Positions 900 to 37,500 of a DNA stretch of 64,000 nucleotides are shown in pieces; the first letter of the stretch is position 1, and every line of letters begins with the position of its first letter. Source of the stretch: an uncultured Actinomycetes bacterium (GTDB taxonomy: Bacteria; Actinomycetota; UBA4738; HRBIN12); contig CAWCXU010000002.1 of NCBI GenBank assembly GCA_963799625.1, positions 419,285 through 483,284 on the forward strand, given 5' to 3'. The position numbers and the translations under genes are program-made. Under the pieces are notes generated by a model. It was not told the origin of the DNA, made no database searches, and worked only from the letters and a program-made list of their open reading frames with translations.

Positions 900-2065
900 G
901 CGTCCCCACGTCCCGTCGCTGCTCGCGCCAGACTTCCCGGTACATCTCGATCGACGCGTCCACCATATGCCCGGTGGAATACTCGGCCCCGACGAGATCG
1001 GCGATCGCCGTGCCGAGCGACTTCAGCTCCTGCTCGGAGCGTCAGGAGCTCGACCACCTGGTCCGCCAGGTCGTCGGGCCGGCCCCCGGCCCCGACGAGA
1101 CGCCCGGTCTCGCCGTCACGGACGACCTCCGAGACACCGCTCACGTCGGTCGAGACCACGGGGACCCCGGCCGCTCCCGCCTCGAGCACCGTCCGGGGCA
1201 GCCCCTCCCATGCGGAGGCGAGCACCAGGAGGTCCATCGCGGCGTACGCCGTCTCGATGTCGTTGCGGAATCCGACCACGTGGATCCGGGGCTCATCCTC
1301 CGTCGACGCGACCGCCTCCTCGAAGGACGGTCCGTCGCCCACCATCAGGAACGACGCTTCCGGCATCGTGCGCACCAACCGCCTTGCCACCTCGAGCACG
1401 ACCTCGGGTCGCTTCTGCGGGAAGTGTCTTCCCACCCAGCCCGCGACCGGTCCGTCGGTCGAGATGCCGAACGAACGCCGGGCTTCCTCGCGGGAGGGAA
1501 GGTTGCGGAACCGGTCGACGTCGATGCCGCTCGGGATGATCGCGATCTGCTCCGGACGCGCGAGGCGGAGCGCGACGAGCTCATCCGCGGTCGCGTGGCT
1601 CACCGCCACGATCCGGTCGCTCGCACGGGCGGCGCGTCGCTCCGCGGCGAGCAGTATCCCGCGCTCGGTGCCCGACATGTCCGGGTTCACCGGCAGGCCG
1701 TGACTCGTATGCACGATCACGGGAACCTTCGCCCGCCTGGCCGCGATCCGTCCGATCACGCCGGCCTTCGATGAATGCGTATGCACCACGTCGAACCCGC
1801 CGTCGCGGATCAGACGGCCCACTTCGCGGTAGGCGCGCGCATCGTCGGCCGGCGAGACCTGACGGACGAGATGCGGCAGGTGCACGAGCGGTACGTCGTC
1901 CGCCTCGAGCCGCTCTTGCATAGGGCCTCCGAGCTGTGAGCCCACCGTGACGTCGAAGCCACGACGACGCATCCCCCCGGCAAGTCCAACGACCGTCTCC
2001 TGGGCGCCGCCACGCTCGAGATGCGTGATCAGCAGCAGGATCTTCGGCCGTTCGGCTGTGCTCAT
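896..2065 (-). CDS. Group 1 glycosyltransferase (GT4 family)
   Basis: ORF 896..2173 with a likely true start MSTAERPKILLLITHLERGGAQE at 2065. Its ATG overlaps the stop of the upstream sulfotransferase (ATGA). The GT4 fold is supported by the C-terminal E…VPVVSTDVSGVSEVV motif region. Confidence 0.85.
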   Translation of the reverse strand: MSTAERPKILLLITHLERGGAQETVVGLAGGMRRRGFDVTVGSQLGGPMQERLEADDVPLVHLPHLVRQVSPADDARAYREVGRLIRDGGFDVVHTHSSKAGVIGRIAARRAKVPVIVHTSHGLPVNPDMSGTERGILLAAERRAARASDRIVAVSHATADELVALRLARPEQIAIIPSGIDVDRFRNLPSREEARRSFGISTDGPVAGWVGRHFPQKRPEVVLEVARRLVRTMPEASFLMVGDGPSFEEAVASTEDEPRIHVVGFRNDIETAYAAMDLLVLASAWEGLPRTVLEAGAAGVPVVSTDVSGVSEVVRDGETGRLVGAGGRPDDLADQVVELLTLRAGAEVARHGDRRSRRGRVFHRAYGGRVDRDVPGSLARAATGRGDA

Positions 2066-3016
2066 GCCGTCACCCCGTCCTGCTGCATCAGCCGGTAGTG
2101 GTATCGCAGCAAGAGAGGCCATGTGAGGGCCGTCACGAGCCGCCGGTCCCCGAGTCCGAGTTTCGTTATCCACTCGACGTCCGGACGGATGGTGAGTGGC
2201 CCCGACTCGAACCGGATCGGGTTGCCGGACACCGTGTGGCTCGAAGTGGGCGGCGACGTCTTCCCCGACACGACGTCGGCGACCGAGGCGGCCGCCTCGT
2301 CCGGCAGGAGCGCCGTGAGCATACCGACCGGATCACAGACGAGATCCTCGTACCGGATGCGATCGTACCGATCAACCTTGCGGCGGACCGCTTCCATCGC
2401 GACGTTCATCGACGACCAATCGAAGCAACTCCGCCACGGCGAGAAGAGCGACATGTCTTGCTCTTGCCAGTGGATCTCGGGGCGAGCCTTCTTCCGCTGC
2501 CACGAATATGCCACGGCGCGGCTATCCCGCACGAGGTGGATCGCGTGGACGCTGACCCTCGGCAACCGGGTGAGCAAGGCGCAATCCGTTGCGTACTTGG
2601 ACGAGTCGACGATCACCTGTCCACCCGTCACACGATCCACCGAGTGCAGGACGCGCTGCAAGGCGTCCAGGTACTCGTGCCGCTGCCTCCGCGTATCGGC
2701 CGACTCCAGGCCGACCCCCGATCTGAGCACCGGCATGGGGCGGGCCACGTCTCGCCATTGGGAGAGGTAGTGCTCCGGATCGAGCTCGTCGATCGGACCC
2801 AGAGCGCCCTTCATGACGTCTCGCCAGAAGGGGCACGAGCGGAAGGGCCTGCCGCAACCACATAGCTGGTTCCCCTGCAGCCCTCGCAACCATAGGTATC
2901 GCAACTCACCCGCAGCGAAATACCCAGGCAACGCGCCCAGCAACAATGAGAGGAGCGTGCTGCCAGTGCGGCTCGCTCCCCCGATGAAGATCGACCTTGG
3001 TGTCGGTTGGGGACAT
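2062..3016 (-). CDS. Sulfotransferase family protein with an apparent +1 frameshift at codon 3
   Basis: ORF 2062..2946 (TTG start in the track) carries the 3'-PB-like region (VIVDSSKY…HLVRDSRAVAYSW) but lacks the PAPS 5'-PSB motif. Extending the same frame upstream gives …PRSIFIGGASRTGSTLLSLLLGALPGY… (the 5'-PSB motif) with no in-frame canonical start. An ATG at 3016-3014 lies one frame off (ATGTCCCCAACC). Removing one C from the CCCC run yields MSQPTPRSIFIGGASRTGSTLL…. Confidence 0.7.
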
Positions 3017-3269
3017 AGGTGCCTATCCGTGGGTCTTGGGGAGACGATACAATCACCCTCCGGTCCTACGCTAGGGTCCGTACGCCCTACCCGGGAAGGG
3101 ATAACGAGATGGTCGAAGTCGCTCGCCCACTCAACAAGTGAGAACAGAAACTTGAAGGCCTAGTTTGGGCCTCCGAGCAGCAGTACCAGTACGAGGCTAC
3201 CCGTTGGGTGGTGCGTTCAACCGAGCCCGGATTCGTCGATCTCGTCGATAGCCTATCTCCACGATCACC

Positions 3270-4071
3270 GTGCCGGCGGGGAGCTCGGAGAAGCCGTCGA
3301 TGCTATCGGCCGACTGCGGCGCGGCGAAGAGCCTGCCCGGCCACATGAAGGTCGAGTCCAAGCTGACGCTCTACTTCGGCACAACCGCGATCTACCGAGG
3401 GTTCTCCCAGCTCGAGATGGCCGGGCGATTGATCCGATTCATGCGGAGCAACGGTTGGCGCTTCAGGAACGACTTCATCCGACTCGACGGCGGCTCCGTC
3501 GTCGTGGACGGCGGCGCGGTGCTGCTCCTGGGAGGCGGCGATCATCGTGTGGCCGCCATAGCTGCCAGGCTGGTCGCGGGCGGCGCCTCGCTGCTCGGGG
3601 ATGACATTACGGTCTGGGAGCCGGTTGACCGGCTGCTGCACCCGCTCGGGATGCCGATCGCGTTGGACGCCGATCTGGCTCACGAGGCCTTCCCTGAGAG
3701 CGTGCCACCCCCCGGCCGGCGTGTTCGAGTCAGGAACGATCGGGCCGCCGTTCCACGCATCTGGCCAGTACCTCTTCGCCCAGAGGAACTCGGAGGAGAC
3801 CAGGCGACGGGAGCCTGCGGCGATCCGGCACGTCTTCGTGGTTGACATGGTCGACGACGCTCCCACCACACTCGAGACGCTCAGTCTCTCTGAGGCGGTC
3901 TTCGCCGCATCCGCGTCCGTGCGCAACATCGAGATCTGGGGCGAGCGAGCCATGATCGCGTTCCGCGAGCTGTACCAGCACGTCCCGTTCTCGAGGCTCG
4001 TGACGAGCTCCATGGACGAGGCAGCTGACGCTGTGCGGCATTCGCTCCCGCACATGGATGGTGTCGCGTGA
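3270..4071 (+). CDS. HprK-related kinase paralog with a degenerate Walker A, carrying an apparent frameshift near 3700-3730
   Basis: Frame-0 ORF 3270..3845 reads …SVVVDGGAVLLLGGGDHRVAAIAARLVAGGASLLGDDITVWEP…PLGMPIALDAD…, an HprK C-terminal kinase-domain-like layout with a degenerate P-loop. The coherent continuation lies in frame 1 (ORF 3601..4071: …LFAQRNSEETRRREPAAIRHVFVVDMVDD…RELYQHVPFSRL…). Its TGA overlaps the GTG of the next gene (GTGA). Confidence 0.55.
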
Positions 4072-4966
4072 CGCAGATCGGGGAAGAGATCCCCTTGCAG
4101 GTTCGGGAATCGGAGAACCCGGTCGTCGACCCCTACCGCGTCATGTCGCTGCCTGCGACGCTGCGACATGGCGACAACCGGCTGCTCGAGGCTCTCAGAT
4201 GGCACCTCCGGCCGTTCGAGATCGCCCATCGCGAGCGCGAGTCGTATGAACTGGAAATCATGGAGACGAGGAAGGAGACGGCCGGACTACCCATGGCGAC
4301 TCACCTACCTCCGAGGCACGGTCCCCATGGTCTCGGGGTCCCCCTGCCGCCGTACTCGACTACGCCCTGTGGGACATCCATTCTCTCGTGTACCAGCACT
4401 GCATGGACTTCCTATTCCTGCATGCCGGCGCGGTCGCCGGCGGCGGGCGCCGAGTGATCCTGCCCGCCGCGCCGGAAACAGGGAAGTCGACGTTGGTGGC
4501 ATCGCTGCTCCGCCTAGGGTGCGAGTACCTCTCCGACGAGCTAGCGCCGATCGACCCTGTGACGGCGGGCGTCTATCCGTTTCCCAAGCACATCGCCGTC
4601 GCCAGATCCGGTTTGGAGTACATCACCGGCGGACCTCCAGAACTCCCGGACGACTACCCTCCCCTAACCGCGCAGCTCTCCAACCGATACCTCCGGCCGG
4701 GCGACCTGAAAGCCGTAGTCGCCGGCTCGGGATCGGTCGACATGATCGTGTTCCCGACGGATGATCGGGAAGGGACTCCCACACTTCAGGCCCTCTCCTC
4801 CTCGGAAACGATCGCGCGCCTCCTCGAACACACGCTCAACGCGGAGCTGTACGGGGACCGGACCTTGACGATGCTGACCAGAGCGTCCAGGGCTGCAGAG
4901 TCGTTCGAACTTACAGGAGGCTCCTCAGAGCAGCGAGCCGAACTCTTGCGCCAGGAACTCTTCTGA
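4068..4966 (+). CDS. HprK-related kinase with an intact Walker A (GKST), carrying an apparent frameshift near 4300-4340
   Basis: Frame-2 part …PPAAVLDYALWDIHSLVYQHCMDFLFLHAGAVAGGGRRVILPAAPETGKSTLVASLLRLGCEYLSDELAPIDP… has the HprK C-domain P-loop GxxGxGKST followed by G..LSDE. The N-terminal 80 aa (MTQIGEEIPLQVRESENPVVDPY…) are in frame 0 (ORF 4068..4457). The frame switch falls in a GGGG/CCCCC run. Confidence 0.65.
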
Positions 4967-4969
4967 AAC

Positions 4970-5009
4970 GCGCAAGGCCCCCCGGTTGGGAGGGCCCTGC
5001 GTAAACTAA
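4970..5009. terminator. GC-rich hairpin between convergent genes, a putative intrinsic terminator without a T-tract
   Basis: cgcaaggccc-(12-nt loop)-gggccctgcg gives a 10-bp stem with one mismatch. It lies immediately after the HprK-related gene stop and at the 3' end of the convergent minus-strand small gene. Confidence 0.4.
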
Positions 5010-5393
5010 CTTCGACTGCCTAGCAGACGAACTCGACCTGACCGTGTCCGCTCGACGTGTAGCAATCGGGGTCGCAGTAGTCGTCGGACGAGCACGGGTT
5101 GCAGTCTCCCTGGCCCACCGGACATGCCGCGTTGCAGATGTCGCTCGCATGGACCACCAAGCGCCGAGCCCGCTTGCGTACAAGCTGGCTTGCACCCGAA
5201 CGCGTTGGTGTCAGTCGGGTCTGAGTGGCAGCAGTTTCCCTGGGGCGGCGGGCCCGAAGCTCCGGTGGACGCCCTCGCGGCGCCCGCGACGACCGTCTGG
5301 ATCGCCGGAGCAGCGAAGATGACCACGCCGCCAGTAGCGGCCGCGCGCTTGATGAAGGACCGGCGGTTCACGCCTTGGCCCTCGGTGTGCTCA
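5006..5393 (-). CDS. Small Tat-signal secreted Cys-rich protein of unknown function, with an apparent frameshift near 5130
   Basis: A GTG start at 5393 is preceded by AAGGAGGGGG. The protein begins MENTEHTEGQGVNRRSFIKRAAATGGVVIFAAPAIQTVVAGAARA, where RRSFIK is a twin-arginine motif. It continues …GNCCHSDPTDTNAFGCKPACTQAGSALGGPC. The +1 frame then reads …ASDICNAACPVGQGDCNPCSSDDYCDPDCYTSSGHGQVEFVC*. Together these give 12 or more Cys in about 90 mature residues. Confidence 0.55.
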
Positions 5394-5620
5394 GTGTTCT
5401 CCACCTGAACCCCCTCCTTCTCTTGTCTGGAGCCCAGGCTAGGGACCCGGCTCGGCCGCCGAATCGCCGTGCTGACGTATCTTCCGTGACGGCCCCGGGC
5501 GGAGCGGCACTCCTCAAACCCGCTGGTCAGGGGCACCGGACGGCGCCCAACTACGACGAACAGCGTACGTCGCGCCTCGCACCCTTCCTGCGGGATGCCC
5601 GCCTGGGATACGCTCCCACG

Positions 5621-6840
5621 ATGCCCCCCAGCTTCGTGCACCGCGCCCTGATCGACGCCGCGCGTGATGAGCTGGATCCATCTCGGGTCGAGGGGGCCAC
5701 CGAGGCCGAGCGTCACGAGCTCCTCATCCGGAGCCGGGACCATGCGGTGCAGGGGCTGGTCGCCCGTTCGGTCCGCCGGGCCGGGGACCTCGAACCCTGG
5801 GCGCTCCCGTTCGTCCAGGACGCGATCGGGATCCGAGAGTCGCATGCACAGCACGTCCGGACGCTCCGGACCGCCTCGTTCGCCCTCGAACGAGCACGAG
5901 GTGCCGGGGCTCCTCATGAAGGGCGCGTCGCTGGTCGATCGCTACTACCACGACGACTCCCTCCGGGCGTACGGCGACGTCGACATGCTCGTTCCCTCCC
6001 AACGGTTCGCCGACGCGTTGTCGATCCTGGAGGAGGCCGGGTTCTCGATCCTCGACCGCAACTGGCACATGCTCCGTGCGGGATATGCGAGGCCAGCTCC
6101 ACCTGCGCTCCCCCGACGGTCACGACATGCTGGAGCTGCACTGGCATCCGATCAATCCGAGCCGGGTCCGCCACACCCTTTCGGTGACCGCGAACGACCT
6201 TTGGTCCGGCGCGTCGCGAACCCGAGTCGCGGGGCGGACGTGTGGGTGCCGCACACGTCCCGCGAGCTGGCCCACCTCTGCCTGCACGCCGCGCTGCACG
6301 GTTGTGACCGCCTGATCTGGCTGGTCGACATCCACAAGGTCATGGACTCCCCCGATCTCGACCTGGACGACCTGCAACGCACCGCACGTCACTGGGGGTT
6401 CGGCGCGGGGACCTATCTCGTGCTCGCCTTGGTCGATCGGTGGCTCGGGCTCTCGCAGCCCCTACGGGATCTCTCGCAGGCTCCACCCGGGCCGCGCCAC
6501 CCTCGCCGCGTTCCACCGGCTGGTCGACCGGTGGGACCTCGGCCGGCCCGCTCGCGACGCGCGGTTCCGGCAGCTGCTCTTCGCGACCGCGGCCGACGGC
6601 GTGGGGCGCCGCGCCAGGCTGACCTGGTCACTCGTGGTGCCGCCGGACGTCAGCGATCCGGATGCGGGCAGGGAGCCACTCGGCCCGCTGCTTTCCAGGA
6701 TGACGATCGGCGCGGCGACCAGGGTCCGGCACAAGCTCGACGAGCATGCCGAGGACGATGCGGCACCCGAATTCCTTCGGCGAGGGGACCCTGCCGTCGG
6801 ACGCGTCCGGTATCTGGCGCGCGTCGCATCCGAACGATAA
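5621..6840 (+). pseudogene. Nucleotidyltransferase family protein (PF14907-like, uncharacterised NTase), disrupted by four or more frame switches
   Basis: Family-typical segments fall in different frames. MPPSFVHRALIDAARDELDPSRVEG…LRTASFALERARGAG is in frame 2. …LLMKGASLVDRYYHDDSLRAYGDVDMLVPSQRFADALSILEEAGFSILDRNWHML is in frame 0. GQLHLRSPDGHDMLELHWHPINPSRVRHTLSVTANDLWSGASRTRVAG is in frame 1. ADVWVPHTSRELAHLCLHAALHGCDRLIWLVDIHKV…LGLSQPLRDL is in frame 0. …ATLAAFHRLVDRWDLGRPARDARFRQLLFATAADG…RVRYLARVASER* is in frame 1. The switches sit in G/C runs (for example ggtgccggggctcc and gcggggcggacg). Confidence 0.7.
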
Positions 6841-6862
6841 GGCATCAGGTCACCGTGATCTG

Positions 6863-8515
6863 CTACGGAGCCGGTGGTAGCTCCCACCGGCTCTCGGCGC
6901 GCGCCGCCTCGTCGTGGTTGTCCGTGCCGTATGGGTCGAGGTCCAGGCTCACCGGCGCCCCTGCGCGCTTCCCGCTGCCGTAGCCCTGCATCCTGCGATA
7001 TCCGGTCAGCTTCCCCAGCTTGATCCCGTTCAGGACGATGCCAACGACATGGGCGTCGTGACGCTGCAGCAGGTCGACACAGTCCTCCATCTCGTCTTCC
7101 AAGGTGACGCCTTGCCGCACGACGACGATCGCCGCGTCGGCCTCTCCGGCGAGCACGATGGCATCCGCGGTGTGGAGCAACGGCGGCGTGTCGATCACGA
7201 CGACGTCGTAGTCGGTCTCCAGGCGCGCGATCGAGCCGATGATCAGGTCCTGTCGCCATCCCGTCTCCCCGGGCATCAGAAAGATCTCGTCGAATCCCAT
7301 CGGATCCGAACGCTTCCGCATCGGCGCCGACGCCCCCCCGGGCGCGGCGGCGGCCTCGAATGTCTTGCGGCGACGGCGCGGCACCGAGTCCGCAACGTCG
7401 GCATGGAACAGGGCCGTCCGCTGCGACGAGGCGGCGTACGACGACGCCAGGTTCGCCGCGATCGTCGACTTCCCCTCCCCGGTCGACGCGCTCACGATCG
7501 CGACCGTGCGGAGGTCGCCGTGATCGCCCAACCTCGACGCTTGCATCCGCAACTCGGCACGGAGCATCGAGATGGACTCGGCTCCCCACGCGGATCGACG
7601 CTGCACGAGCAGCGGTTGGTGTCGCACCGCCCGCGCGCGACCCACCTTGGGGATCGTCGCGAGGATCGGCAGGCCGAGCTCTTCGACCTGCTGACGCCCG
7701 AGGATCTTCGGTCGCACGACACCGAGGGTGAGCGCCAAGGCGATGCCGAGCAGCAAGCCGGCCATCGGGAACAGGAGGAGTCGCAGTGTCCCCGTCGGGA
7801 TCGGTTCCGACGCCGTGCTGAACGGCTTGCTGAGCAGGAGGTAGTTCGTCTCCGCCAGACTGTTCCCGAGCACGATGCTCTCGCGGAAGGCGACGTGCTG
7901 CTGGTACAGGCTGCTGACGGCCTGGTATTCCGTGGAGGTGACCTGCGTGGATGCGTGATTCGCCTGTTCTTGATCGAGCTCGTGGGACAGTTCGTCGAGA
8001 CGAGCCTGCAAGCTGGCGATGCGCGTGTCCACGCTGGCGAGCACCTGATCGACCCGCGTCTGATCTTGCTTGCGCCGATAGTCCACGTAGTTGGAGGCAT
8101 ACGCCGCGAGCTCGTCTGAGATCGCGGGGCTGTCGCCGGTGATCGAGAGGTTGATCACGGGCGCCCCGGGCTCGCCGTCCGCGGTGAGGTTGGTGAGCAG
8201 GGAGTCGCCACCGTCGGTCATCCCCAACTGTTGGGCGGTCGAAGCAGCGACGTCGACCGATACGGCGGCCTGCACCTCCGATGCAGGTACCGTGAGCGAC
8301 GAGGATGACGACACGCCCGTCTGGTCGAACTGCAACGGGCGGATCTCGATGGGCACCGTCGCCGTGTAGGTGCGGGTCGGGGCCCCGGGCCGCGTGACGA
8401 GCGCGAGGAGGAGGCCGCAGACCGTGAGGGCGAGGATCAACCACTTCCGATCCCAGATCATCCGGATGTAGTCGCCCGCGGGCGGTGACCCCTGCTGCTT
8501 CGCGTGTGTCGGCAC
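6863..8515 (-). CDS. Polysaccharide biosynthesis tyrosine autokinase (Wzz-like chain-length domain fused to a CpsD/CapB P-loop; Wzc-like BY-kinase)
   Basis: 550-aa ORF with an N-terminal TM and a periplasmic coiled-coil. A second TM is followed by Walker A SASTGEGKST, then VVVIDTPPLL and a Tyr-containing C-terminal tail (GYRRMQGYGSG…DLDPYGTD). Confidence 0.85.
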   Translation of the reverse strand: MPTHAKQQGSPPAGDYIRMIWDRKWLILALTVCGLLLALVTRPGAPTRTYTATVPIEIRPLQFDQTGVSSSSSLTVPASEVQAAVSVDVAASTAQQLGMTDGGDSLLTNLTADGEPGAPVINLSITGDSPAISDELAAYASNYVDYRRKQDQTRVDQVLASVDTRIASLQARLDELSHELDQEQANHASTQVTSTEYQAVSSLYQQHVAFRESIVLGNSLAETNYLLLSKPFSTASEPIPTGTLRLLLFPMAGLLLGIALALTLGVVRPKILGRQQVEELGLPILATIPKVGRARAVRHQPLLVQRRSAWGAESISMLRAELRMQASRLGDHGDLRTVAIVSASTGEGKSTIAANLASSYAASSQRTALFHADVADSVPRRRRKTFEAAAAPGGASAPMRKRSDPMGFDEIFLMPGETGWRQDLIIGSIARLETDYDVVVIDTPPLLHTADAIVLAGEADAAIVVVRQGVTLEDEMEDCVDLLQRHDAHVVGIVLNGIKLGKLTGYRRMQGYGSGKRAGAPVSLDLDPYGTDNHDEAARAESRWELPPAP

Positions 8516-8516
8516 G

Positions 8517-8852
8517 TCAGCGATCCTCTTCGCTCGCGTCCTCGATCAACCCGAGCGCTTCGAACTCTCCGACGAGGCTTCCGACCTGCTCCTGGACCTG
8601 ACCACGGTCGAGCTCGTATTCGTCCGCGATGTCACTGCTGATCTGTTCCACCGACCCCTCGCCGTCGCAGAGCTGCCACACCAGGGCCGCCGACGGATTG
8701 AGGTGGTGGACGAGACTCGAGCCCCTGTTGAACAGGACGAGTCCATCCTCCATGTCGAGGTCGAGCACATCGGCGCATTTCGTCGGGATGTACCCGCCTG
8801 AGATCTCGAGGGGATCGGAAGGCGCCGGGTCGAGGGGTACCTGTTCGTTCAT
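8517..8852 (-). CDS. PqqD-family protein (RRE-type peptide-binding chaperone domain)
   Basis: 111-aa product MNEQVPLDPAPSDPLEISGGYIPTKCADVLDLDMEDGLVLFNRGSSLVHHLNPSAALVWQLCDGEGSVEQISSDIADEYELD… matches the PqqD/RRE pattern (…lvL.n..sg.i..LN.sa..vW.l.dG..sv.ei…). Its ATG at 8852 overlaps the sugar-transferase stop (8849). Its stop abuts the BY-kinase start. Confidence 0.75.
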   Translation of the reverse strand: MNEQVPLDPAPSDPLEISGGYIPTKCADVLDLDMEDGLVLFNRGSSLVHHLNPSAALVWQLCDGEGSVEQISSDIADEYELDRGQVQEQVGSLVGEFEALGLIEDASEEDR

Positions 8853-9889
8853 GACATGTGATCGATCGTGCTGGGCGCGGTCAGTACCAGCTTCGTGGTC
8901 TTGAAGAGGATCTCGATGTCGAAACGTAGCGTTCGGTGGATCAGATGGAACATGTCGTACTGATGGGTGAGGTACTTGGCCTTCACCGAGTTCCCGTAGC
9001 CGACGTTCAGCGTACCCCACCCGGTCATCCCGGGACGAACCGAGTGTCGCACGTCGTATTGGGGAACGTGTTGTTCGAGGAGCTCCACGAACGCCGGGCG
9101 CTCGGGCCTCGGCCCGATCAACGACATATCCCCCTTCAACACGTTGATGAACTGCGGGAACTCGTCGATCCGGTACTTGCGGAGCACCGCGCCGACGCGC
9201 GTCACGCGGTCGTCGTCGGCCTCGGCCCATCGAGGACCTGCACGCTCGGCATCGATCTCCATCGTGCGGAACTTCACGATCCGGAACGGTCGCTTGTCTC
9301 GTCCGATCCGCTCCTGCTTGAACAGGACCGGTCCTCGGTCGTCCAGCCAGATCGCGACAGCCACGAACGGGAGCAACACGAACAAGAGCAGGCACCCGAG
9401 GATCCCGCCGACGATGTCGATGGTCCTGGACACGATCCGACCGAAAAGACCTGCAGCCTTGGGCACCTCGGTCGCGCCCTCCAACGACGCGATGCGGTAC
9501 CGGCTCTTCGCGAGGCTGCGGACGCTCGTGATGCCGACGCCGGCATCCAGCAATCGGCGCACGACATCCACCGTAGCCGGTGTGACGGTCTCGGTGTGCA
9601 GCGTCACGACGACGGTGTCGTCATCGAGATCGAAGATCGGGAACGCGCCATCCGGTTCGACAAGCTCGACATCCGGCTGCACGCGTAGCCAGTCGGGCGC
9701 CTCGTTGCCGAGGACGATCACCTGGCCGGTTTGGATGACCCGCCTTGTCATCCGCCTCGGCTGGGACTGTTTGGGAAAGGCTTCATCGCGCTCGGTTCGA
9801 AGGACGGTCAAAGGGGTGACCTCCGATAGCTCGATGGGGTGGGATGGGCGCTCATCATAGTGCGAGTCGCCGGGTGCGAGATAGCGCAA
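8849..9889 (-). CDS. Polyprenyl glycosylphosphotransferase (bacterial sugar transferase, WbaP/WcaJ-like short form)
   Basis: A single TM (IVGGILGCLLLFVLLPFVAVAIWL) is followed by the PF02397 signature …RIVKFRTM…DEFPQFINVLKGDMSLIGPRP…. An alternative start is MTRRVIQ at 9751. Confidence 0.85.
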   Translation of the reverse strand: MRYLAPGDSHYDERPSHPIELSEVTPLTVLRTERDEAFPKQSQPRRMTRRVIQTGQVIVLGNEAPDWLRVQPDVELVEPDGAFPIFDLDDDTVVVTLHTETVTPATVDVVRRLLDAGVGITSVRSLAKSRYRIASLEGATEVPKAAGLFGRIVSRTIDIVGGILGCLLLFVLLPFVAVAIWLDDRGPVLFKQERIGRDKRPFRIVKFRTMEIDAERAGPRWAEADDDRVTRVGAVLRKYRIDEFPQFINVLKGDMSLIGPRPERPAFVELLEQHVPQYDVRHSVRPGMTGWGTLNVGYGNSVKAKYLTHQYDMFHLIHRTLRFDIEILFKTTKLVLTAPSTIDHMS

Positions 9890-9966: not shown

Positions 9967-10647
9967 ATGGTTCGCGTAATCGTCGCCGATCCACAACCCT
10001 TCTTTCGCCAAGCATTCATGACCGCGTTGGCACACGAGACAGGGTTCGAGCCGCTGGACGATTCCGGCGACGAGATCGAGACGGCCGCAACGGCGGTGGA
10101 GGGAGCCGCGGATCTCATCCTGACCGAGATCGAACTCGCCGGCGGCTCCGGGCTGCACCTGCCGGCCCGGATCGGGGCCAGCGTCCCGGTGATCGTGGTC
10201 ACGCGCCACCATGAGGCGGAGGTGCTGATGGACGTGGCGGTCTCGGGGGCCGTGGGATGCATCAGTCATGCGGTTGGTCTCAAGCGCGTCGTCGAACTGC
10301 TGCGCGGCTTCCGGCCCGGCCGTTTCTGTGTCGATGACGAGCGCCTGCTCGAGATCCTTCGCCAGGCCGGACGCGCTCCGGTCCAGGAGAGCGACAACCT
10401 CCGGAGGCTGACCGTGCGAGAGCGTGAGGTCCTTGTCAGGCTCTCCTCGGGTGCAACCGACGACGCCATCGCGGAGTCGCTGTACATCAGCCGTCATACC
10501 GTTCGGACGCACGTCGGGAACATCCTGCGGAAGCTCGGCGTGCACTCTCGGGCTCAGGCCGCTCGCCTCGCGCTCGCAGCCGATCCGGATCGGCGGTCGC
10601 AGCCGGACGTGTTGCGGATCGATGGCCCTGGCTGGGGAAGCGATTGA
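9967..10647 (+). CDS. LuxR-family (NarL/FixJ-type) response regulator with an atypical receiver domain
   Basis: MVRVIVADPQPFF…DLILTEIELAGGSG…VIVVTRHHE… is followed by a LuxR HTH (LTVREREVLVRLSSGATDDAIAESLYISRHTVRTHVGNILRKLGV). The position aligned to the phospho-acceptor Asp appears to be Glu (LTEIEL). Confidence 0.8.
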   Translation: MVRVIVADPQPFFRQAFMTALAHETGFEPLDDSGDEIETAATAVEGAADLILTEIELAGGSGLHLPARIGASVPVIVVTRHHEAEVLMDVAVSGAVGCISHAVGLKRVVELLRGFRPGRFCVDDERLLEILRQAGRAPVQESDNLRRLTVREREVLVRLSSGATDDAIAESLYISRHTVRTHVGNILRKLGVHSRAQAARLALAADPDRRSQPDVLRIDGPGWGSD

Positions 10648-10683
10648 ACCTCGACGGGGAGAACGTCGGCGGCCGACAGGCCA

Positions 10684-11294
10684 TGATCGTGTCGGGGGAC
10701 CCGCTCTTCCGCGACGCCGCGGCCGCTCACCTCAGATCGCACGGGTGGCTCGTCCCGACGTGCGAATCCGACGGGATGCGGGCGCTCTCCCTGCTCACTC
10801 GACAACCCATCGACGCCATCCTCATCATCGGGGAGGTGGCGCGGATCGGGGGCGCCGCACTCAAAACCGAGGTTGGGCGTCGGTGGCCGGAGATCGTGGT
10901 GGTCACGCTTCCCAACGGCTACCCGTCGGGAGAGAACGACGTCGCACTCGAGGCCGACACCGACGAGGTCCTGGCCTCGTTGGGGTCGCCGACGCCGCCG
11001 GGCCCGACCCTAGACCCGAACTCGGACCCCGTCGTCTTGCGGCTCGCCTCGTTGACACCGAGGGAACGGACGATCCTGCGAGGACTCGGGAATGGCGAGA
11101 CGCCGGCCGAGATCGCCGAGGGCCTCGGCCTGAGCGGGCATACCGTCCGCTCCCACCTAGCGAACCTCCACCACAAGCTCGACGTGCATCGACGGGTCGA
11201 ACTCGTCCGGCTCGCCGCCGTTGCGGGACTCGTCAGCGAGGAGGCCGATCACGGACGATCGGGCACGGCTGCGGATGAACCTGCGGGCCGCTGA
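10684..11294 (+). CDS. Second LuxR-family response regulator with an atypical receiver domain
   Basis: MIVSGDPLFRDAAAAHL…IDAILIIGEVARIGG…VVVTLPNG… plus a LuxR HTH (LTPRERTILRGLGNGETPAEIAEGLGLSGHTVRSHLANLHHKLDV). The track ORF starts at TTG 10644, which overlaps the previous stop (TTGA). The ATG at 10684 fits a receiver N-terminus. Confidence 0.75.
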
Positions 11295-11384: not shown

Positions 11385-13353
<1,969 letters not shown>

Positions 13354-13509: not shown

Positions 13510-13938
13510 ATGCAGCAACCGCCGCCACCTCCCCCGGCACCGGCGGCACCGCCCACGCGGCGCGGCCTCCCGAAGGGTCTCAAGCTCCTGTTCGTCCTCC
13601 TGGCCGTGTTCTTCGTGCTGACGGGGGTCATCGCGTACGCGAACCGGTGGTTCATCTCGTACGTGACCTCGACCAGCCCGCACGCGATCACCTATGAGGT
13701 CACGGGGAGCGGGACGGCGCAGGTGGCCTACGGGACGCCCGAGGGCACGACGACGGACACGGTCTCGCTCCCCTGGGAGGTGACCCTGACGGTTCCCGAC
13801 GGGTCGATGCTGTCGATCGCGGCGACCGGGACCAGCGGCGGGTTCCTCACCTGCCGGATCAAGTGGGAGGGACACACGATCGGGCTCGACACCGAGTCCG
13901 CGAACCAGCCGGCGTGTCAGAAGTCGGCGACGGCCTAG
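13510..13938 (+). CDS. MmpS-family small membrane protein (single N-terminal TM, Pro-rich N-terminus)
   Basis: [15 protein letters not shown]…[21 protein letters not shown]…[20 protein letters not shown]…[10 protein letters not shown]…[28 protein letters not shown] shows the MmpS-like layout with the two conserved Cys. Confidence 0.7.
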
Positions 13939-15104
13939 CCGGCTTTGGCCGGCGGTCCAGGCTCCGCAAGGGCCGGCAGCGGCTCCGCGCGCACCCAGGC
14001 GATCCGGTCGGGGATGCTCCCGTGGGTCGCGAACAGCAGCCGCGCGACCCGGCTCGGGTCGAGGTCGGCGAGGTTGGACACGGCGAGACGCCGCAAGAGC
14101 AACGCGAACCCCACCGGGTCCCGCGTGAGCCGGACGCCGAACAGGTCCGCGGCGCGCTCCTGGCTGCGGATGTACCCGACGACGATCGGTCGCAGGGCGA
14201 TCCCGAAGGCCCCCCACACCAGCAACAGGAGCGGCACATAGGTCGGATCAGGAGCGACGAAGGGCACCCGTGTGACGAGCCCGCCGAAGAACGCCACGGG
14301 CACCCCGTCGTATAGCAAGGCCCCGGGGAGGCGATCGACGAGCGTCACCGTCGCGACGAACACGACCGCGGCCACGGCGAGGAACACGCCGAGCCGCTTG
14401 ACCGTGTGGTGCAGCCGCATGTGCCCGAGCTCGTGGGCGACGGCGGCGTCCAGACAGATCGGACCCTCGGCCGCGAGCGTGTCGAACACGACGAGCCGCC
14501 GCGTCGGCCACACCCCGACCACGAACGCGTTCTGCCGGCGCGTGCCCTGCATGACCTTGCGGACGCGGACACCGTCGAGCTGGACGCGGGATCGGCGGAT
14601 CAGGCTCCGGAGTCGTGCGGCCGTCGGCGGATCGTCGACCTTGTGCGCGGACGCAGCGACGAGCAACGGCGCGACGAGGACGGCGACGGGGAGCCACACG
14701 AGCGTCCCGACCATCTGGCCGTACCCGAACAGCACCACGTCCCAGATCTGCTGCATCCAGGCCGGTCCCGCGAGGATCAGCAGCAACCCCCACACGAGCG
14801 ACCGCACCGGCAACTGATGCCAGCCCTGCGACAGGCCCTGCGCTCGCTCGTCGCGCGCGCCGGCGAACGCGACCGGGATCGTGAGCGCCCAGCCGATCGC
14901 GAGGCTCACGGCCGCGATGTCCCACACCGACCCGGTGCCCGAGCCCGAGGTCGACATGGATCGCGACAGACCGGACACGTACACACCCACGAACGCCGCC
15001 GCATAGAGCGCCTGGCGCCAGACGAAGCGTCGATACCGGCGACGCGCGAACGCGGCGGCCCGCGCGCGCTCGCGTTCGGTGAACTCGCCGACCGCGTCGG
15101 CCAT
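13935..15104 (-). CDS. M48-family zinc metallopeptidase (HtpX/Ste24-like) membrane protein
   Basis: [29 protein letters not shown]… has multiple TM segments. [10 protein letters not shown] provides the HExxH zinc motif, and a downstream [10 protein letters not shown] glutamate motif follows. The 881-aa track ORF 13935..16580 fuses this gene in frame to the TPR tail of the upstream decayed regulator. Confidence 0.75.
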
Positions 15105-36138: not shown

Positions 36139-37495
36139 TCAGGCGTGGACCCGCGAACGCGCCACCCAGTCCTGGGCGGCCATCTGCACCGGGTCCCAGG
36201 GCGAGCTCAACGGCGGTGTGTAGCTGAGGTCGAGGTCGGAGAGATCTTCGACGAGCATCCCGTGGTGGAGTGCGGCGGCGGCGATGTCGATCCGCTTGGC
36301 GATCTGCCCTCGATGGTCGCCCACCATCTGGACCCCGAGGAGCCGGCCGTCCCGCCGATCACCCGTGGTGCGGATCGTGATCCGGGTGGCGCCCGGGTAG
36401 TAGACCTTGTGGTCCCAGGTTTCCAACGAGGTCGTCGACGGCTCGAAGCCCGCCTCGCCCCCGTCGCGATCGCGCAGGCCCGTCCGCGCGACGGCCAGAT
36501 CGAACACCTTCACCACCTGGGTGCCGAGGCTCCCCTTGAACACCCGATCGCCGCCGACGGCGTTCTCACCGGCGATCCGCCCTTGCTTGTGGGCGGTCGT
36601 CCCGAGCGGCAGGTACGTCGGTCCGTCGAGGAGCGCGTGCCACGTCTCGACGCAATCACCGGCGGCGTAGACGTCGGGCGCGCTCGTCCGCATCCCCCGA
36701 TCGACGTGGATCGCGCCGCGCACCCCGAGCTCCAGGCCGGCCGCTTCGGCGAGCGCGACGTCCGGTCGCACGCTGACGACGACCAGCACGACGTCACCCG
36801 AGGCATCGTCGAACCCCGTGCCGGACACCACGAGTCGATCGTCCGACCGTTCGATCGCCTTCACCAGCGCATCGGTGTCGCACCCGGACGTCGTGCCGGG
36901 CCAGCTCCGCGCCGATGAGCTCGCCGAGCTCGACGTCCACGGTGGTCATGACCGCCGGTGCCTGCTCGAGGAGCGTCACCTCGATCCCACGGTGGGTCAA
37001 TGCGTCCGCCATCTCGAGACCGATGTAACCGCCGCCGACGATCACGGCCGACCGGGCGTCCGCCAGACGCTCTTGGAGCGCGAACGTGTCATCCATCGTG
37101 CGCAGGAGATGGACACCGTCCTGGCGGATCCCCTCGATCGGCGGCTCGATCGGCACCGCGCCCGTCCCGATCACCAGGCGGTCGTACGGGACGCGCTCCT
37201 CGGCGCCCCCCGGGCCCCGCAGCAGCACCGTCCGGGCCTCGACGTCGACCTCCAACGCCCGCGTGTCGAGCCGAAGCTGGAGACCGGTCGCCTCGATCTC
37301 CTCCCGCGTCCGGTGCGCGAGTTGGTGCCAGTCGGGGGTCTCGCCGCTCACGTAGAACGGGATGCCACAGATGCTGAAGTTCGGATAGGCGTCGGCGACG
37401 ACCATCGTCACGTCGACGGAGGGATCGAGCTCGCGCGCTCGCAGCGATGCGCTGATCCCCGCGTCGCTCCCACCGATCACGAGCAGATGTGGCAT
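36139..37495 (-). CDS. FAD-dependent pyridine nucleotide-disulfide oxidoreductase with an apparent frameshift near 36800-36860
   Basis: The N-terminus MPHLLVIGGSDAGISASLRARELDP…VIVGGGYIGLEMADAL… is in ORF 36794..37540. The C-terminal half …AAGDCVETWHALLDGPTYLPLGTTAHKQGRIAGENA… with its dimerisation domain is in ORF 36139..36864, in a different frame. Confidence 0.65.
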
Positions 37496-37500
37496 CGCTG

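Follow-up and report, generated by a model that had tools for sequence, protein, structure and literature searches.

A conserved gene for a small Cys-rich protein with a twin-arginine export signal lies on the minus strand of the stretch of DNA that was analysed (the window, 64,000 nucleotides in length), and the features around it are listed in Table 1. The earlier note had placed this gene, on the opposite strand, between the genes for HprK-like proteins (3273-4966) and the NTP_transf_5 gene, and this placement was correct. The strong ribosome binding site and GTG start described there were also found; the AGGAGG core is separated from the GTG codon by a spacer of 8 nt, and the translation opens (V/M)ENTEHTEGQGVNRRSFIKRAAATGG. 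When read without correction, the frame from this GTG ends at a stop codon at 5008-5006, and its last ~40 codons are not Cys-rich. Since the Cys-rich half at the C-terminus (DICNAACPVGQGDCNPCSSDDYCDPDCYTSSGHGQVEFVC) is read in the +1 frame, which ends with the TAG codon at 5022-5020, the true gene runs from 5404 to 5020 and not to 5006. The span of 5006-5393 proposed earlier thus needed revision at both ends, its upper end falling 11 nt short of the start codon. The single frame switch supposed to join the two Cys-rich halves was traced to one extra base at 5146. The corrected protein consists of 127 aa and contains 12 Cys, in line with the previous count of at least 12; its predicted mature part is 82 aa (residues 46-127).

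Directly 3' of the TAG codon, a hairpin was found by folding (-35.2 kcal/mol, z = -4.9), which is probably a bidirectional terminator. A simple promoter and terminator scan of positions 4900-5750 made no call, and it missed this hairpin because the hairpin has no T-run. Rfam and tRNA scans of the window gave no match.

Table 1. Positions of the gene, its parts and the neighbouring genes in the window.
Feature	Position	Strand	Remarks
Tat-leader Cys-rich putative precursor gene	5020..5404	minus	127 codons; GTG 5404-5402, TAG 5022-5020; extra base 5146 removed
Shine-Dalgarno sequence AAGGAGGGGG	5410..5419	minus	read directly from the sequence
Leader, residues 14-45, RRSFIKRAAATGGVVIFAAPAIQTVVAGAARA	5270..5365	minus	twin-arginine motif, h-region, A-R-A cleavage motif
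F30-A-A-P33-A-I35, RRE-type motif [W/F/Y]xxPx[I/V]	5300-5317	minus	-16 to -11 from the predicted AxA site
Core, residues 46-127	5023..5269	minus	S/T/P linker STGASGPPP, then Cys domain
Single extra base (C, GTCGCT[C]GCA)	5146..5146	+ (letter)	cause of the apparent frameshift
Hairpin, 13 bp, GC-rich	4971..5001		between the convergent precursor and HprK_A genes
HprK-like kinase A (HprK_A)	4068..4966	+	TIGR04352, 81.7 bits (cut-off 200); tblastn pieces
Second HprK-like protein B (HprK_B)	3273..4071	+	tblastn; two frames in the window
PF14907 NTP_transf_5 nucleotidyltransferase	5621..6983	+	86 bits; divergent from the precursor gene
PqqD-family peptide chaperone (RRE), intact	8517..8852	minus	PF05402, 57.8 bits; between Bac_transf and Wzc-like genes
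Wzc-like chain-length determinant/tyrosine autokinase	6863..8515	minus	domain scan and homologue alignment
Polyprenyl glycosylphosphotransferase (Bac_transf)	8849..9889	minus	orthologue scan
Two LuxR/GerE-type regulators	9973..11282	+	response regulator 9973-10638; GerE protein 10683-11282
Wzy_C polymerase/ligase	3-803	minus	
GT4 glycosyltransferase	896-2173	minus	
Sulfotransferase-like gene	2062-3015	minus	

The base at 5146 was missing from the L001 and L002 loci in a three-way alignment with the window and also from L003; all three are metagenome assemblies near-identical to the window. Removal of this base gave a protein 98% identical to the database protein P0001, which reads PCSDICNA across the break site. 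The frame was continuous across this site in every relative, and the break was a 1-nt insertion specific to the window. Over the 13 kb of the three-way alignment, the window, L001 and L002 each contained 15-21 private 1-nt indels. Because each assembly had its own scattered indels of this kind, the frameshift was attributed to assembly noise, and the break at 5146 was judged from the aligned sequences to be a sequencing or assembly error rather than biology. The opposite reading, in which the break is real and reflects a decaying pseudogene or programmed +1 frameshifting in the window organism, could draw on the fact that 12 of the 17 window-specific indels lie between 2992 and 6477, where they affect four adjacent cassette genes. 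However, the private indel clusters of L001 and L002 are equally dense in other genes (in L001, even GroEL is broken), the ratio of indels to substitutions (~1:6 at ~98% identity) greatly exceeds what natural divergence would give, and a frameshift of the window is also found in the unrelated Pyr_redox_2 gene. Programmed frameshifting is further disfavoured because no relative shares the shift at 5146. Both forms of this reading were rejected on the indel ratio, the private indels and the Pyr_redox_2 frameshift, and a real break is considered very improbable.

Several neighbouring genes are interrupted in the window as well. HprK_A is split over frames by window-specific indels (one at 4334), HprK_B is split by indels at 3489 and 3806, and NTP_transf_5 is spread over three frames by indels at 5883, 6076, 6233 and 6477; the last gene is intact in L001, L004 and L040, where it encodes 404-411 aa. 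The orthologues of HprK_A keep the P-loop GKS[ST]. Those of HprK_B have no GKS P-loop, and for this reason, HprK_B may be a pseudokinase. The PqqD protein of the window scored 41.4 bits with TIGR04353 ("HPr-rel-A system PqqD family peptide chaperone", cut-off 35), and its next-best model was lasso_PqqD_Strm. In the window's own lineage, the PqqD gene does not adjoin the precursor gene; since it is found ~3 kb away inside the Bac_transf-Wzc operon, a role of PqqD in polysaccharide assembly could be indicated. No other small conserved ORF that might be a client of the PqqD chaperone was found in the cassette at the L001, L002, L004 and L010 loci.

A database search with the corrected protein yielded 12 homologues of the precursor with E values of about 1e-23 to 2e-78. 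Eleven of them aligned over at least 91% of the query, and the remaining one, P0012, is a 104-aa fragment; conservation of the joined ORF in relatives, on which the earlier proposal depended, was thus borne out at full length. The full-length homologues have 121-136 aa and 56-98% identity, and the same cassette was present throughout. A profile search extended the family to 131 cluster representatives at E<=1e-3 (clusters at 50% identity). Pfam and NCBIfam scans assigned no family to the core, even at E<=10 for Fer4/HiPIP or others, and the NCBIfam library contained no model for the precursor, so the family, which the earlier note did not recognise, still lacks a model covering its core in either collection. 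A scan of GTDB species representatives with the family alignment gave L006 as the sole match. This protein, from Verrucomicrobiota, is a Gfo/Idh/MocA oxidoreductase that is not a family member and has the Tat signal as its only common feature. Because the sole match was unrelated, the precursor family appears to be absent from, or missed in, the GTDB representative genomes.

The N-terminal part of the protein was found to be a twin-arginine signal. The motif NRRSFIK, pointed out in the earlier note, fits Z-R-R-x-Phi-Phi-K, and the NCBIfam model TIGR01409 (TAT_signal_seq, cut-off 16.7) gave 19.2 bits for the corrected window protein and 20.5 bits for P0001 and matched 27 of 39 family members. 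With the Pfam model TAT_signal, the precursor remained below the cut-off (13 bits vs 22.7). By inspection, a weakly hydrophobic h-region is followed by an AxA site, AAATGGVVIFAAPAIQTVVAGAA-R-A before ST, where cleavage after A-R-A is predicted between residues 45 and 46; relatives read TPAFA before Q. The leader is better conserved than the core. Mean pairwise identity was 88% for leader residues 14-45 vs 55% for the core, and the codon changes were 16-17 synonymous vs 4-6 non-synonymous in the leader and 11-15 silent vs 26-28 replacement in the core.

Within the h-region, the motif [W/F/Y]xxPx[LIVFAM] was found in 141 of 151 relatives bearing the RR (W in 119, F in 14 and Y in 8). Its offset from the RR was +15/+16 in nearly all of them and +12 in Y-type leaders, and the aromatic residue and Pro were at -16 and -13 relative to the predicted AxA cleavage site. 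In the window lineage, the aromatic residue is F, not Y or W. Unrelated cores follow this same leader, namely those of the CxHS and CCEC types, a non-Cys type (L033), and P/T-rich and poly-Lys types. The L033 precursor with the non-Cys core still adjoins HprK, PqqD, NT5 and Wzc genes, and two precursor genes stand in tandem at L039. The leader class extends over at least 131 clusters (50% identity) with several unrelated core types in Actinomycetota, and look-alikes occur in proteobacterial HPr-rel-A cassettes. The motif is missing where the Cys domain follows generic Tat signals (P0033, P0035, P0051, P0052 and P0105). In the Tat signal of the L006 oxidoreductase, F-A-S-P-S-I stands equally far from the RR, and therefore, a three-residue motif in an Ala/Pro-rich h-region can arise without an RRE.

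The core follows the pattern CxHS...GC-x3-C...C-x3-C-x3-CP...C...YCDPxCY...F[IV]C. Ten Cys are conserved, and the window lineage has two more; in the family alignment, Cys counts are always even, and the extra Cys of P0001 and P0009 are paired in the same two loops. Of 117 relatives, 88 have an [S/T]P among the first 12 residues of the predicted core, usually at positions +2 to +5. This conserved site near the core start corresponds to S50 in the window protein, and the serine of the invariant CxHS corresponds to S61. AF2 modelling with a 10-sequence alignment was unusable (pLDDT 42), and a 39-sequence alignment was needed to obtain a core model with a pLDDT of 85-95 for residues 70-127. A structure search of this predicted model against the PDB gave no match, and the core is modelled as a disulfide-rich fold with no PDB counterpart, possibly a new one. 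Larger secreted proteins that have ordinary Tat signals also carry this Cys domain, at their C-terminus; therefore, it can function without the precursor leader.

The co-localisation with PF14907, HprK-related and PqqD genes that the earlier note raised turned out to be conserved in other genomes, distant lineages included. The common cassette comprises Bac_transf, PqqD, a Wzc-like kinase, NTP_transf_5, the precursor, two HprK-like kinases, a sulfotransferase, GT4 and Wzy, and it recurs in L001, L002, L004, the P0011 contig and L040. LuxR/GerE-type regulators flank it in all lineages. In distant members (~35-45% identity, L007-L011), PqqD is followed by the precursor gene, toward which HprK_A and, behind it, HprK_B are convergently transcribed; these loci also carry NTP_transf_5, a Wzc-like gene and LuxR regulators. 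At L010, the nucleotidyltransferase is fused to a GT1 domain, and a putative 60-aa ORF between PqqD and the precursor gene at L007 was set aside as apparent intergenic sequence. Among 23 soil-metagenome loci, HprK_A is immediately downstream and convergent in 14, and the gene immediately upstream is PqqD in 9 and NTP_transf_5 in 1; the remaining few contigs have little flank or other core types. PqqD proteins of relatives scored 45.0 (L004), 47.8 (L040) and 36.5 bits (L007) with TIGR04353, and that of L010 scored 32.0, just below the cut-off of 35. A compact cassette at P0250, outside any polysaccharide locus, encodes a 182-aa unknown protein, a 98-aa product, HprK_A and the nucleotidyltransferase. 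Proteins with the leader and a CCEC-type core adjoin sugar-modifying genes, with no clear PqqD within the short flanks.

The locus was compared with known systems. Clusters for LPPs (linear polyphosphorylated peptides, RiPPs) are described as confined to Bacillota (Popov et al., Nat Commun 2026, PMC13381572). LPP precursors contain YxxP with Y at -16, which is bound by a discrete RRE (PMC13381572), and lasso leaders contain YxxPxL at -17 to -12, also bound by a discrete RRE (PMC10368454). In the lasso and LPP systems, HprK homologues phosphorylate a Ser of the RRE-bound precursor, an NTase adds hexose to the Ser phosphate, and these phosphorylation clusters also lie in capsule loci (PMC8498205, PMC13381572).

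All loci related to the window share with LPP clusters the trio of a discrete PqqD-type RRE, an HprK-like kinase and an uncharacterised NTP transferase, and both systems are embedded in polysaccharide loci. In both, precursors may be long (35-200 aa for LPPs), the N-terminus is conserved while the C-terminus varies strongly, and a cluster may contain one, two or three precursor genes. The leader [Y/W]xxPx[L/V/I/F/A] with the aromatic residue at -16 is likewise common to them, as are leader removal by a signal-peptidase-type enzyme, predicted for the window precursor, and a Ser close to the core start (LppA, Ser3; window family, [S/T]P at +2 to +5). In contrast to LPPs, the leader of the window family is itself a full twin-arginine signal peptide, its aromatic residue is W or F and not Y, two HprK paralogues are present, one of them without a P-loop, and the core is a folded domain with 10-12 Cys; moreover, the window family, known from sequence alone, has Actinomycetota hosts, whereas LPPs are described as restricted to Bacillota. 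Among the genes called within +/-10 kb at L001, L002, L004, L007, L010 and L040, no peptidase domain was found, and none encoded LppS (a SipW-like, archaeal-type signal peptidase I); the conserved cassette at these loci contained no ABC transporter and hence no MsbA-like exporter. Export would be left to the general Tat system and cleavage to signal peptidase I.

Phosphorylated and phospho-glycosylated lasso peptides (paeninodin, pseudomycoidin and Bsf; PMC8498205, PMC10368454) resemble the window system in the HPr-kinase homologue, which in the lasso case acts on a Ser of the RRE-bound precursor, in the PF14907-type nucleotidyltransferase, which there transfers hexose onto the phosphate, in the sulfotransferase gene that often stands alongside, and in the YxxPxL-type leader motif; the second-best match of the window PqqD was a lasso RRE model. 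Unlike these peptides, the window precursor is about three times longer and has no Thr(-2)/Gly1 lasso junction, and the Asn-synthetase-like macrolactam synthetase (C) and the transglutaminase-like B2 cysteine protease were absent from the cassette at all loci. The Asn_synthase at the edge of L007 and L037 is a 650-aa amidotransferase of the polysaccharide-locus type.

The HPr-rel-A system is defined in NCBIfam by kinase A (TIGR04352), PqqD (TIGR04353) and kinase B (TIGR04355). The window cassette resembles it in that the PqqD passes TIGR04353 and two HprK-related genes accompany PF14907. A canonical Burkholderiales cassette of this system, L037, starts with a gene for a 162-aa Tat-signal protein with 8 Cys, directly upstream of PqqD and HprK_A, and at L038, a 114-aa Tat-leader protein with 12 Cys is encoded beside NT5, HprK_A and PqqD; the leaders of these two proteins lack the aromatic residue or the Pro. 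The kinases of the window family differ from those of the system in scoring well below the equivalog cut-offs of 200 (82-97 bits for HprK_A; at most 19 bits for HprK_B, which otherwise matches only the A model, at 26-59 bits). They are thus homologous to HPr-rel-A kinases but not equivalogs, and because of these scores, the cassette was assigned to a divergent actinobacterial branch. In the literature, no published substrate was found for the TIGRFAM-defined HPr-rel-A system; nothing was found joining twin-arginine with PqqD or on the HprK-related kinase, TIGR04352 or SynChlorMet, and for PF14907, only an unrelated phosphonate paper was found.

Binding of twin-arginine signal peptides in the cytoplasm is known from REMPs (TorD, DmsD and NapD), which hold the substrate until its maturation is complete. 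Their fold is unrelated to that of PqqD-type RREs, and they serve cofactor insertion, not phosphorylation or glycosylation; hence, the likeness to the proposed role of PqqD would be a functional analogy only.

Because the Tat signal looks like a docking leader of the neighbouring enzymes, the protein is probably their substrate. On sequence comparison and analogy, we favour as the probable explanation that it is a client of the RRE-kinase-nucleotidyltransferase module, an actinobacterial Tat-exported analogue of LPP and phosphorylated-lasso tailoring that would be modified before export. The earlier proposal of a candidate substrate gained comparative support from the conserved linkage, the conserved leader with a variable core and the RRE-type motif, while RRE binding, the modification itself (phosphorylation or glycosylation) and its site, export through Tat, cleavage of the signal, disulfide formation and the protein's role in biology are what we infer. 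In the cytoplasm, the PqqD-type RRE would bind the leader via F/W-x-x-P-x-I/V in the h-region and thereby mask the signal peptide. Phosphorylation of a Ser or Thr, most likely S50 of the conserved [S/T]-P or, alternatively, S61 of CxHS, would be carried out by HprK-like kinase A, possibly in partnership with paralogue B, which has no P-loop. The PF14907 transferase would then elaborate the phosphate, probably together with the adjacent glycosyl- and sulfotransferases. The modified protein would be exported by the Tat system and cut after A-R-A by the housekeeping signal peptidase I. Outside the cell, its 10-12 Cys could form 5-6 disulfides of a compact mini-protein, which may associate with the exopolysaccharide or matrix that this locus produces. 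We know of no precedent for Tat export of a phospho-glycosylated protein.

Several observations stand against the precursor reading. The core is confidently predicted to be an 82-aa folded domain and not a short peptide, and it also occurs behind ordinary Tat signals in larger proteins. The scores of the HprK-like proteins with TIGR04352 are low, and a dedicated leader peptidase or exporter is missing, unlike in LPP clusters. The motif-like sequence in the Tat signal of L006 and the leaders of L037 and L038 are further observations of this kind.

The most serious alternative is that the protein is an ordinary accessory protein of the exopolysaccharide locus, rich in disulfides and secreted via Tat (for instance a mini-protein of the matrix or one with an adhesive, signalling or antimicrobial role), which is co-inherited and co-regulated with the cassette and not modified by it; PqqD, HprK and the NTase would then have some other target, for example the Wzc-like kinase, a lipid-linked glycan or a peptide that is not annotated. 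The autonomy of the Cys domain, which occurs in multi-domain secreted proteins with generic Tat signals, is consistent with such a protein, and the even Cys counts and paired gains fit an extracellular disulfide fold; the position of PqqD within the Bac_transf-Wzc operon in the window lineage and the CCEC-type leader proteins beside sugar-modifying genes, with no clear PqqD in their short flanks, point in the same direction. However, it leaves unexplained the much stronger protein-level conservation of the signal peptide compared with the mature part, the occurrence of one leader on unrelated cores, the position of the peptide-binding PqqD directly upstream in most distant lineages and the match of the leader motif and its spacing with known RRE ligands (PMC13381572); moreover, the cassette offers no other small conserved ORF as the chaperone client. 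We regard this alternative as rather unlikely.

It is considerably less probable that the N-terminus is an uncleaved membrane anchor that touches the Wzc/Wzy machinery, its conservation reflecting helix-helix packing, with the extracytoplasmic Cys head regulating or scaffolding the polysaccharide export complex. The strong conservation of the h-region and the constant co-occurrence with Wzc-like, Wzy_C and Bac_transf genes agree with an anchor, but a conserved AxA or PAFA-Q signal-peptidase site follows the hydrophobic stretch, which is short, contains much Ala, Gly and Thr and has a Pro at its centre; such features typify a cleaved Tat signal, and the score with TIGR01409 exceeds the cut-off. 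The P0250 cassette outside a polysaccharide locus also argues against an anchor if its 182-aa gene is a precursor. A small metal or iron-sulfur redox protein (ferredoxin- or HiPIP-like), with the cofactor inserted in the cytoplasm, would suit the Tat system, the usual route for cofactor-bearing proteins, and C-x3-C-x3-C-P-V-G is loosely like the ferredoxin CxxCxxCxxxCP, but this spacing is unlike any Fe-S motif and the cassette has no redox partner genes, and the idea was rejected as hardly credible on the absent family matches (Fer4, HiPIP and others), the Cys gained in pairs and the model without a structural neighbour in the PDB.

More generally than for the single protein, and somewhat more tentatively, it is nearly as likely as not that Tat signal peptides double as RiPP-type leaders: a widespread, so far undescribed class of small proteins would be docked by a PqqD-type RRE via WxxP in the h-region and would be phosphorylated and glycosylated in the cytoplasm by HprK-like kinases and PF14907 transferases; only afterwards would Tat export them and the general signal peptidase trim them. 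To our knowledge, no earlier case of RRE-guided modification of a Tat substrate has been described, and, if true, this would be the first.

The trio of RRE, HprK kinase and PF14907 was linked to a linear precursor only in 2026, for LPPs, a family described as restricted to Bacillota. The family found here provides a concrete candidate substrate for the orphan HPr-rel-A cassette in its actinobacterial branch and apparently in the proteobacterial one too. An economical variant is suggested, in which no dedicated peptidase or pump would be needed because the leader itself is the export signal. The leader profile RRxF[LI][KR][KR]..G...W..P.[IV]Q[TS] can be used directly as a query in genome mining. 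If Tat signal peptides do double as leaders, the orphan HPr-rel-A system would gain its missing substrate, RiPP-style maturation would be tied to exopolysaccharide and biofilm loci beyond Bacillota, and there would be a handle on the role of modified proteins in polysaccharide and biofilm loci.

The small gene for a Tat-signal Cys-rich secreted protein that the earlier note had placed at 5006-5393 was confirmed by the signals and the translation read in the sequence, with its coordinates adjusted (see the table). Translation from the GTG begins VENTEHTEGQGVNRRSFIKRAAATGGVVIFAAPAIQTVVAGAARA-STGASGPPPQGNCCHSDPTDTNAFGCKPACTQAGSALGGPC..., after which this frame becomes Arg/Leu-rich and stops at 5008-5006; the Cys-rich sequence is carried on in the +1 frame as ...DICNAACPVGQGDCNPCSSDDYCDPDCYTSSGHGQVEFVC. 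A hairpin lies between the gene and the convergent HprK-like gene.

Coordinates of the features discussed (related contigs carry L numbers)
Feature	Contig	Position	Strand	Remark
HprK_B	window	3273-4071	+	
HprK_A	window	4068-4966	+	
GC hairpin	window	4971-5001		13 bp, 3' of precursor TAG; -35.2 kcal/mol, z = -4.9
Precursor	window	5020-5404	-	
Precursor stop codon	window	5022-5020	-	TAG
Precursor start codon	window	5404-5402	-	GTG
Shine-Dalgarno	window	5419-5410	-	AAGGAGGGGG, upstream of GTG
NTP_transf_5 (PF14907)	window	5621-6983	+	
PqqD-type RRE	window	8517-8852	-	intact
GroES and GroEL	window	11385-13353	-	
938-aa ORF	window	13935-16751	-	Peptidase_M48 at residues 714-921
Split Pyr_redox_2 gene	window	36794-37705 and 36139-36945		dihydrolipoamide-dehydrogenase-like
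Private indels	window	935, 1042, 2992, 3251, 3489, 3806, 4334, 4980, 5146, 5423, 5542, 5883, 6076, 6233, 6477, 9895, 9900		single base
HprK_B	L004	10754-11575		
HprK_B	L007	11307-12179		
HprK_B	L010	11327-12193		
NTP_transf_5-Glycos_transf_1 fusion	L010	7569-9782		737 aa; Actinomycetota MAG GCA_035550975.1
Precursor, poly-basic tail	L026	484-747		
Precursor, non-Cys core	L033	635-1174		
Tandem CCEC/CCHC-type precursors	L039	587-925 and 962-1306		
Tat-signal protein, 8 Cys	L037	9096-9584		162 aa; Burkholderiales MAG GCA_020848075.1

The single frame switch that had been proposed to join the two Cys-rich halves was borne out as one extra base at 5146 (GTCGCT[C]GCA). Without this base, the precursor has 127 aa, reads PCSDICNA across the junction and has two residues unlike the database protein P0001; the frame across the site is unbroken in relatives, P0001 included. 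Over its first 14 kb, the window is approximately 98% identical to the ENA metagenome contigs L001 and L002, and the short-read contig L003 shows 95% identity over the precursor gene region. Alignment of the window with the metagenome contigs required 41-45 gap openings per 13-14 kb, and the three-way alignment revealed 17, 21 and 15 private single-base indels in the window, L001 and L002, respectively; those of L001 shatter its GroEL gene. Twelve of the 17 in the window, which fall within 13 kb, are bunched in 2992-6477. NTP_transf_5 and both HprK-like genes were seen in two or three frames because of window-specific indels. The Pyr_redox_2 gene, which is unrelated to the cassette, is also broken, near 36.8-36.9 kb. 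Programmed frameshifting at 5146 was not supported since none of the relatives was shifted at this site. On this comparison of sequences, the frame switch is an artefact of a noisy, indel-prone assembly, and frameshift or pseudogene calls anywhere in the window are to be distrusted.

Conservation of the joined ORF was evident from its 12 homologues (E from 2e-78 to 8e-23), 11 of which have 121-136 aa and cover 91-100% of the query; the other, P0012, is a 104-aa fragment, and P0002 contains mid-sequence frame errors of its own. The family shares an invariant Tat signal, R14 R15 S F I. R A A A T G G... F A A P.. Q T V, and a conserved short S/T/P linker, and the corrected window precursor scored above the curated cut-off of TIGR01409 (TAT_signal_seq). 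The core contains ten invariant Cys, arranged as C-x-H-S ... G-C-x3-C-T ... C-x3-C-x3-C-P and then C-x-S-x2-Y-C-x-P-x-C-Y ... V-x-F-[IV]-C at the C-terminus; in the family scans, it was covered by no Pfam or NCBIfam model. The number of Cys is always even (10 or 12), and the 12-Cys lineages (P0001 with the window, and P0009) both acquired their extra Cys in the same two loops, one Cys per loop. These paired gains point to an extra disulfide and to an oxidised extracellular fold.

With an HMM, 131 relatives were recovered from 1.84 billion cluster representatives (E<=1e-3). Ordinary Tat signals also precede the Cys domain in some proteins, which is a caveat to reading the precursor as a substrate. 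P0035, P0037, P0042, P0051, P0052, P0053, P0056 and P0059 are larger secreted proteins in which the CxHS domain makes up a C-terminal module, alongside generic Tat signals and other Cys-rich repeats or TTTTTKAP linkers.

The Tat signal of the precursor appears, from these analyses, to behave like a RiPP leader. Mean pairwise identity is 88% in leader residues 14-45, 55% in the core and 37-38% in the n-region and linker. When the window was compared with L004 or L020, 16-17 codon changes in the leader were silent and 4-5 were replacements, against 11-14 silent and 28 replacement changes in the core; judged by these codons, selection on the leader acts at the protein level. A shared leader pattern, RRxF[LI][KR][KR].A..G....W[AT][AV]P[VAI][VI]Q[TS], stands in front of C-terminal parts that are unrelated to one another, namely CxHS, CCEC/CCHC and non-Cys beta-rich cores, P/T-rich tails and poly-Lys/poly-Arg tails. 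The motif [W/F/Y]xxPx[LIVFAM] was present in 141 of 151 RR-bearing relatives (W 119, F 14, Y 8), at +15/+16 from RR in nearly all and at +12 in Y-type leaders, which corresponds to position -16 for the aromatic residue and -13 for the Pro, counted from the predicted AxA cleavage site. The motif was absent from relatives whose resemblance is confined to the Cys domain and whose Tat signals are generic (P0033, P0035, P0051, P0052 and P0105). As a caveat, F-A-S-P-S-I occurs at the same spacing in one unrelated Tat signal, in L006. In 88 of 117 relatives, the predicted core has a conserved [S/T]P between positions +2 and +5.

Several variant loci were also observed. In L033, a WAAPVVQT leader is followed by the non-Cys beta-rich core GISWVAVVLQCDGLHYRMKWDVE..., and the gene adjoins HprK-like, PqqD, NTP_transf_5 and Wzc-like genes; cores of this type were also found in clusters P0110, P0111, P0118, P0123 and P0127. 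CCEC-type precursors with the shared leader, in tandem with a second one in L039, lie directly 3' of a DegT aminotransferase gene in L039, L034 and L036 (an epimerase gene lies farther 5' in L036), and the gene 3' of them weakly resembles the N-terminus of HprK-like proteins. In P0064, P0071 and L026, the whole "core" is a short poly-Lys/poly-Arg tail (e.g., ...AYAHDMGSPKAKKKKKKQPKAPGS), and the L026 gene adjoins an RmlD-like gene.

The order of genes does not vary among the window, L001, L002, L004, L040 (a 1-Mb contig) and the contig that carries P0011: two LuxR-type regulators; Bac_transf -> PqqD -> Wzc-like; <- NTP_transf_5; precursor ->; <- HprK_A <- HprK_B; sulfotransferase-like -> GT4 -> Wzy_C. 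The GroES and GroEL genes adjoin the cassette, and this synteny is conserved across the window, L001, L002, L004 and L040. Beyond them, the 938-aa ORF matches Peptidase_M48 solely at its C-terminus, and its large N-terminal part had no Pfam match at E<=1e-5. HprK_B has lost the GKS[ST] P-loop that is retained in HprK_A (e.g., LPGAPDSRLQAL in HprK_B versus LPAAPEAGKSTL in HprK_A) and probably works as a pseudokinase or scaffold partner. At the P0015 locus, the order is PqqD -> precursor -> <- HprK_A <- HprK_B; NTP_transf_5, another PqqD, a Wzc-like protein and sugar-nucleotide enzymes are encoded close by. The P0014 locus, from an Actinomycetota MAG, repeats the arrangement of the window, and its NTP_transf_5 is fused to Glycos_transf_1, which is consistent with a sugar-adding role of the PF14907 enzyme. 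Among 23 soil-metagenome loci, HprK_A was directly downstream of and convergent to the precursor in 14, a PqqD gene of the same orientation directly preceded the precursor in 9, and NTP_transf_5 was upstream in 1; the few other contigs have little flanking sequence or different core types. In the lineage of the window, PqqD lies inside the Bac_transf-Wzc operon, away from the precursor, which is a further caveat to the substrate reading.

In lasso systems, HPr-kinase homologues phosphorylate a Ser of the precursor, a PF14907-type nucleotidyltransferase adds a hexose to the phosphate, and a sulfotransferase gene is often alongside (PMC8498205); the lasso leader motif YxxPxL occupies positions -17 to -12 (PMC10368454). 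Linear polyphosphorylated peptides (LPPs) were described in Bacillota by Popov et al. 2026, from clusters within capsule loci; their precursors (35-200 aa) have a conserved N-terminus, a variable C-terminus and an RRE-bound [Y/W]xxP leader motif with Y at -16, Ser3 of the core is polyphosphorylated, and a signal-peptidase homologue removes the leader (PMC13381572). With LPPs, the present system has in common the enzyme trio of RRE, HprK-like kinase and NTP transferase, the type of locus, the way the precursor is built, and the motif at a matching position. In contrast to LPPs, its leader is a complete Tat signal, its cassette encodes no dedicated peptidase or exporter, its core is a predicted Cys-rich folded domain, and its hosts, by source names, are Actinomycetota. 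The window PqqD scored above TIGR04353 ("HPr-rel-A system PqqD family peptide chaperone"), with the lasso RRE as the second-best model, whereas the kinases scored far below their cut-offs; these scores mark the cassette as a diverged branch within the NCBIfam "HPr-rel-A system".

The earlier suggestion that the protein is a candidate substrate was supported by the comparative evidence, which makes it reasonably probable that the precursor is a substrate of the neighbouring module. In the proposed mechanism, the PqqD-type RRE would bind the h-region of the Tat signal at its WxxP-type motif, recruiting the kinase and masking the signal. HprK_A would phosphorylate a Ser or Thr near the core start, and the modification would be extended by the PF14907 transferase together with the glycosyl- and sulfotransferases encoded nearby. 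The product would then be exported by Tat and cut after A-R-A by signal peptidase I, with the disulfides forming extracellularly.

Tat-signal Cys proteins were also found in other cassettes. In L037, a canonical HPr-rel-A cassette opens with the gene for the Tat-signal protein (-> PqqD -> HprK_A ... NTP_transf_5), and another actinobacterial cassette, L038, encodes a 114-aa Tat-leader protein with 12 Cys; as a caveat, these leaders lack the aromatic residue or the Pro of the motif. The L037 locus also contains Bac_transf, sensor kinase, sigma-54 regulator and TPR genes and resembles PEP-CTERM/exosortase polysaccharide loci. The P0250 contig carries a compact four-gene cassette (a 182-aa unknown, a 98-aa protein, HprK_A and the NTase) outside any polysaccharide locus. 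A literature search found no paper describing a Tat-signal client of HPr-rel-A cassettes. Set against the known systems, the cassette would be a variant of the LPP/HPr-rel-A type whose leader is a Tat signal, and because the L037 and L038 cassettes have Tat-signal Cys proteins, such a client may be a general feature of HPr-rel-A cassettes.
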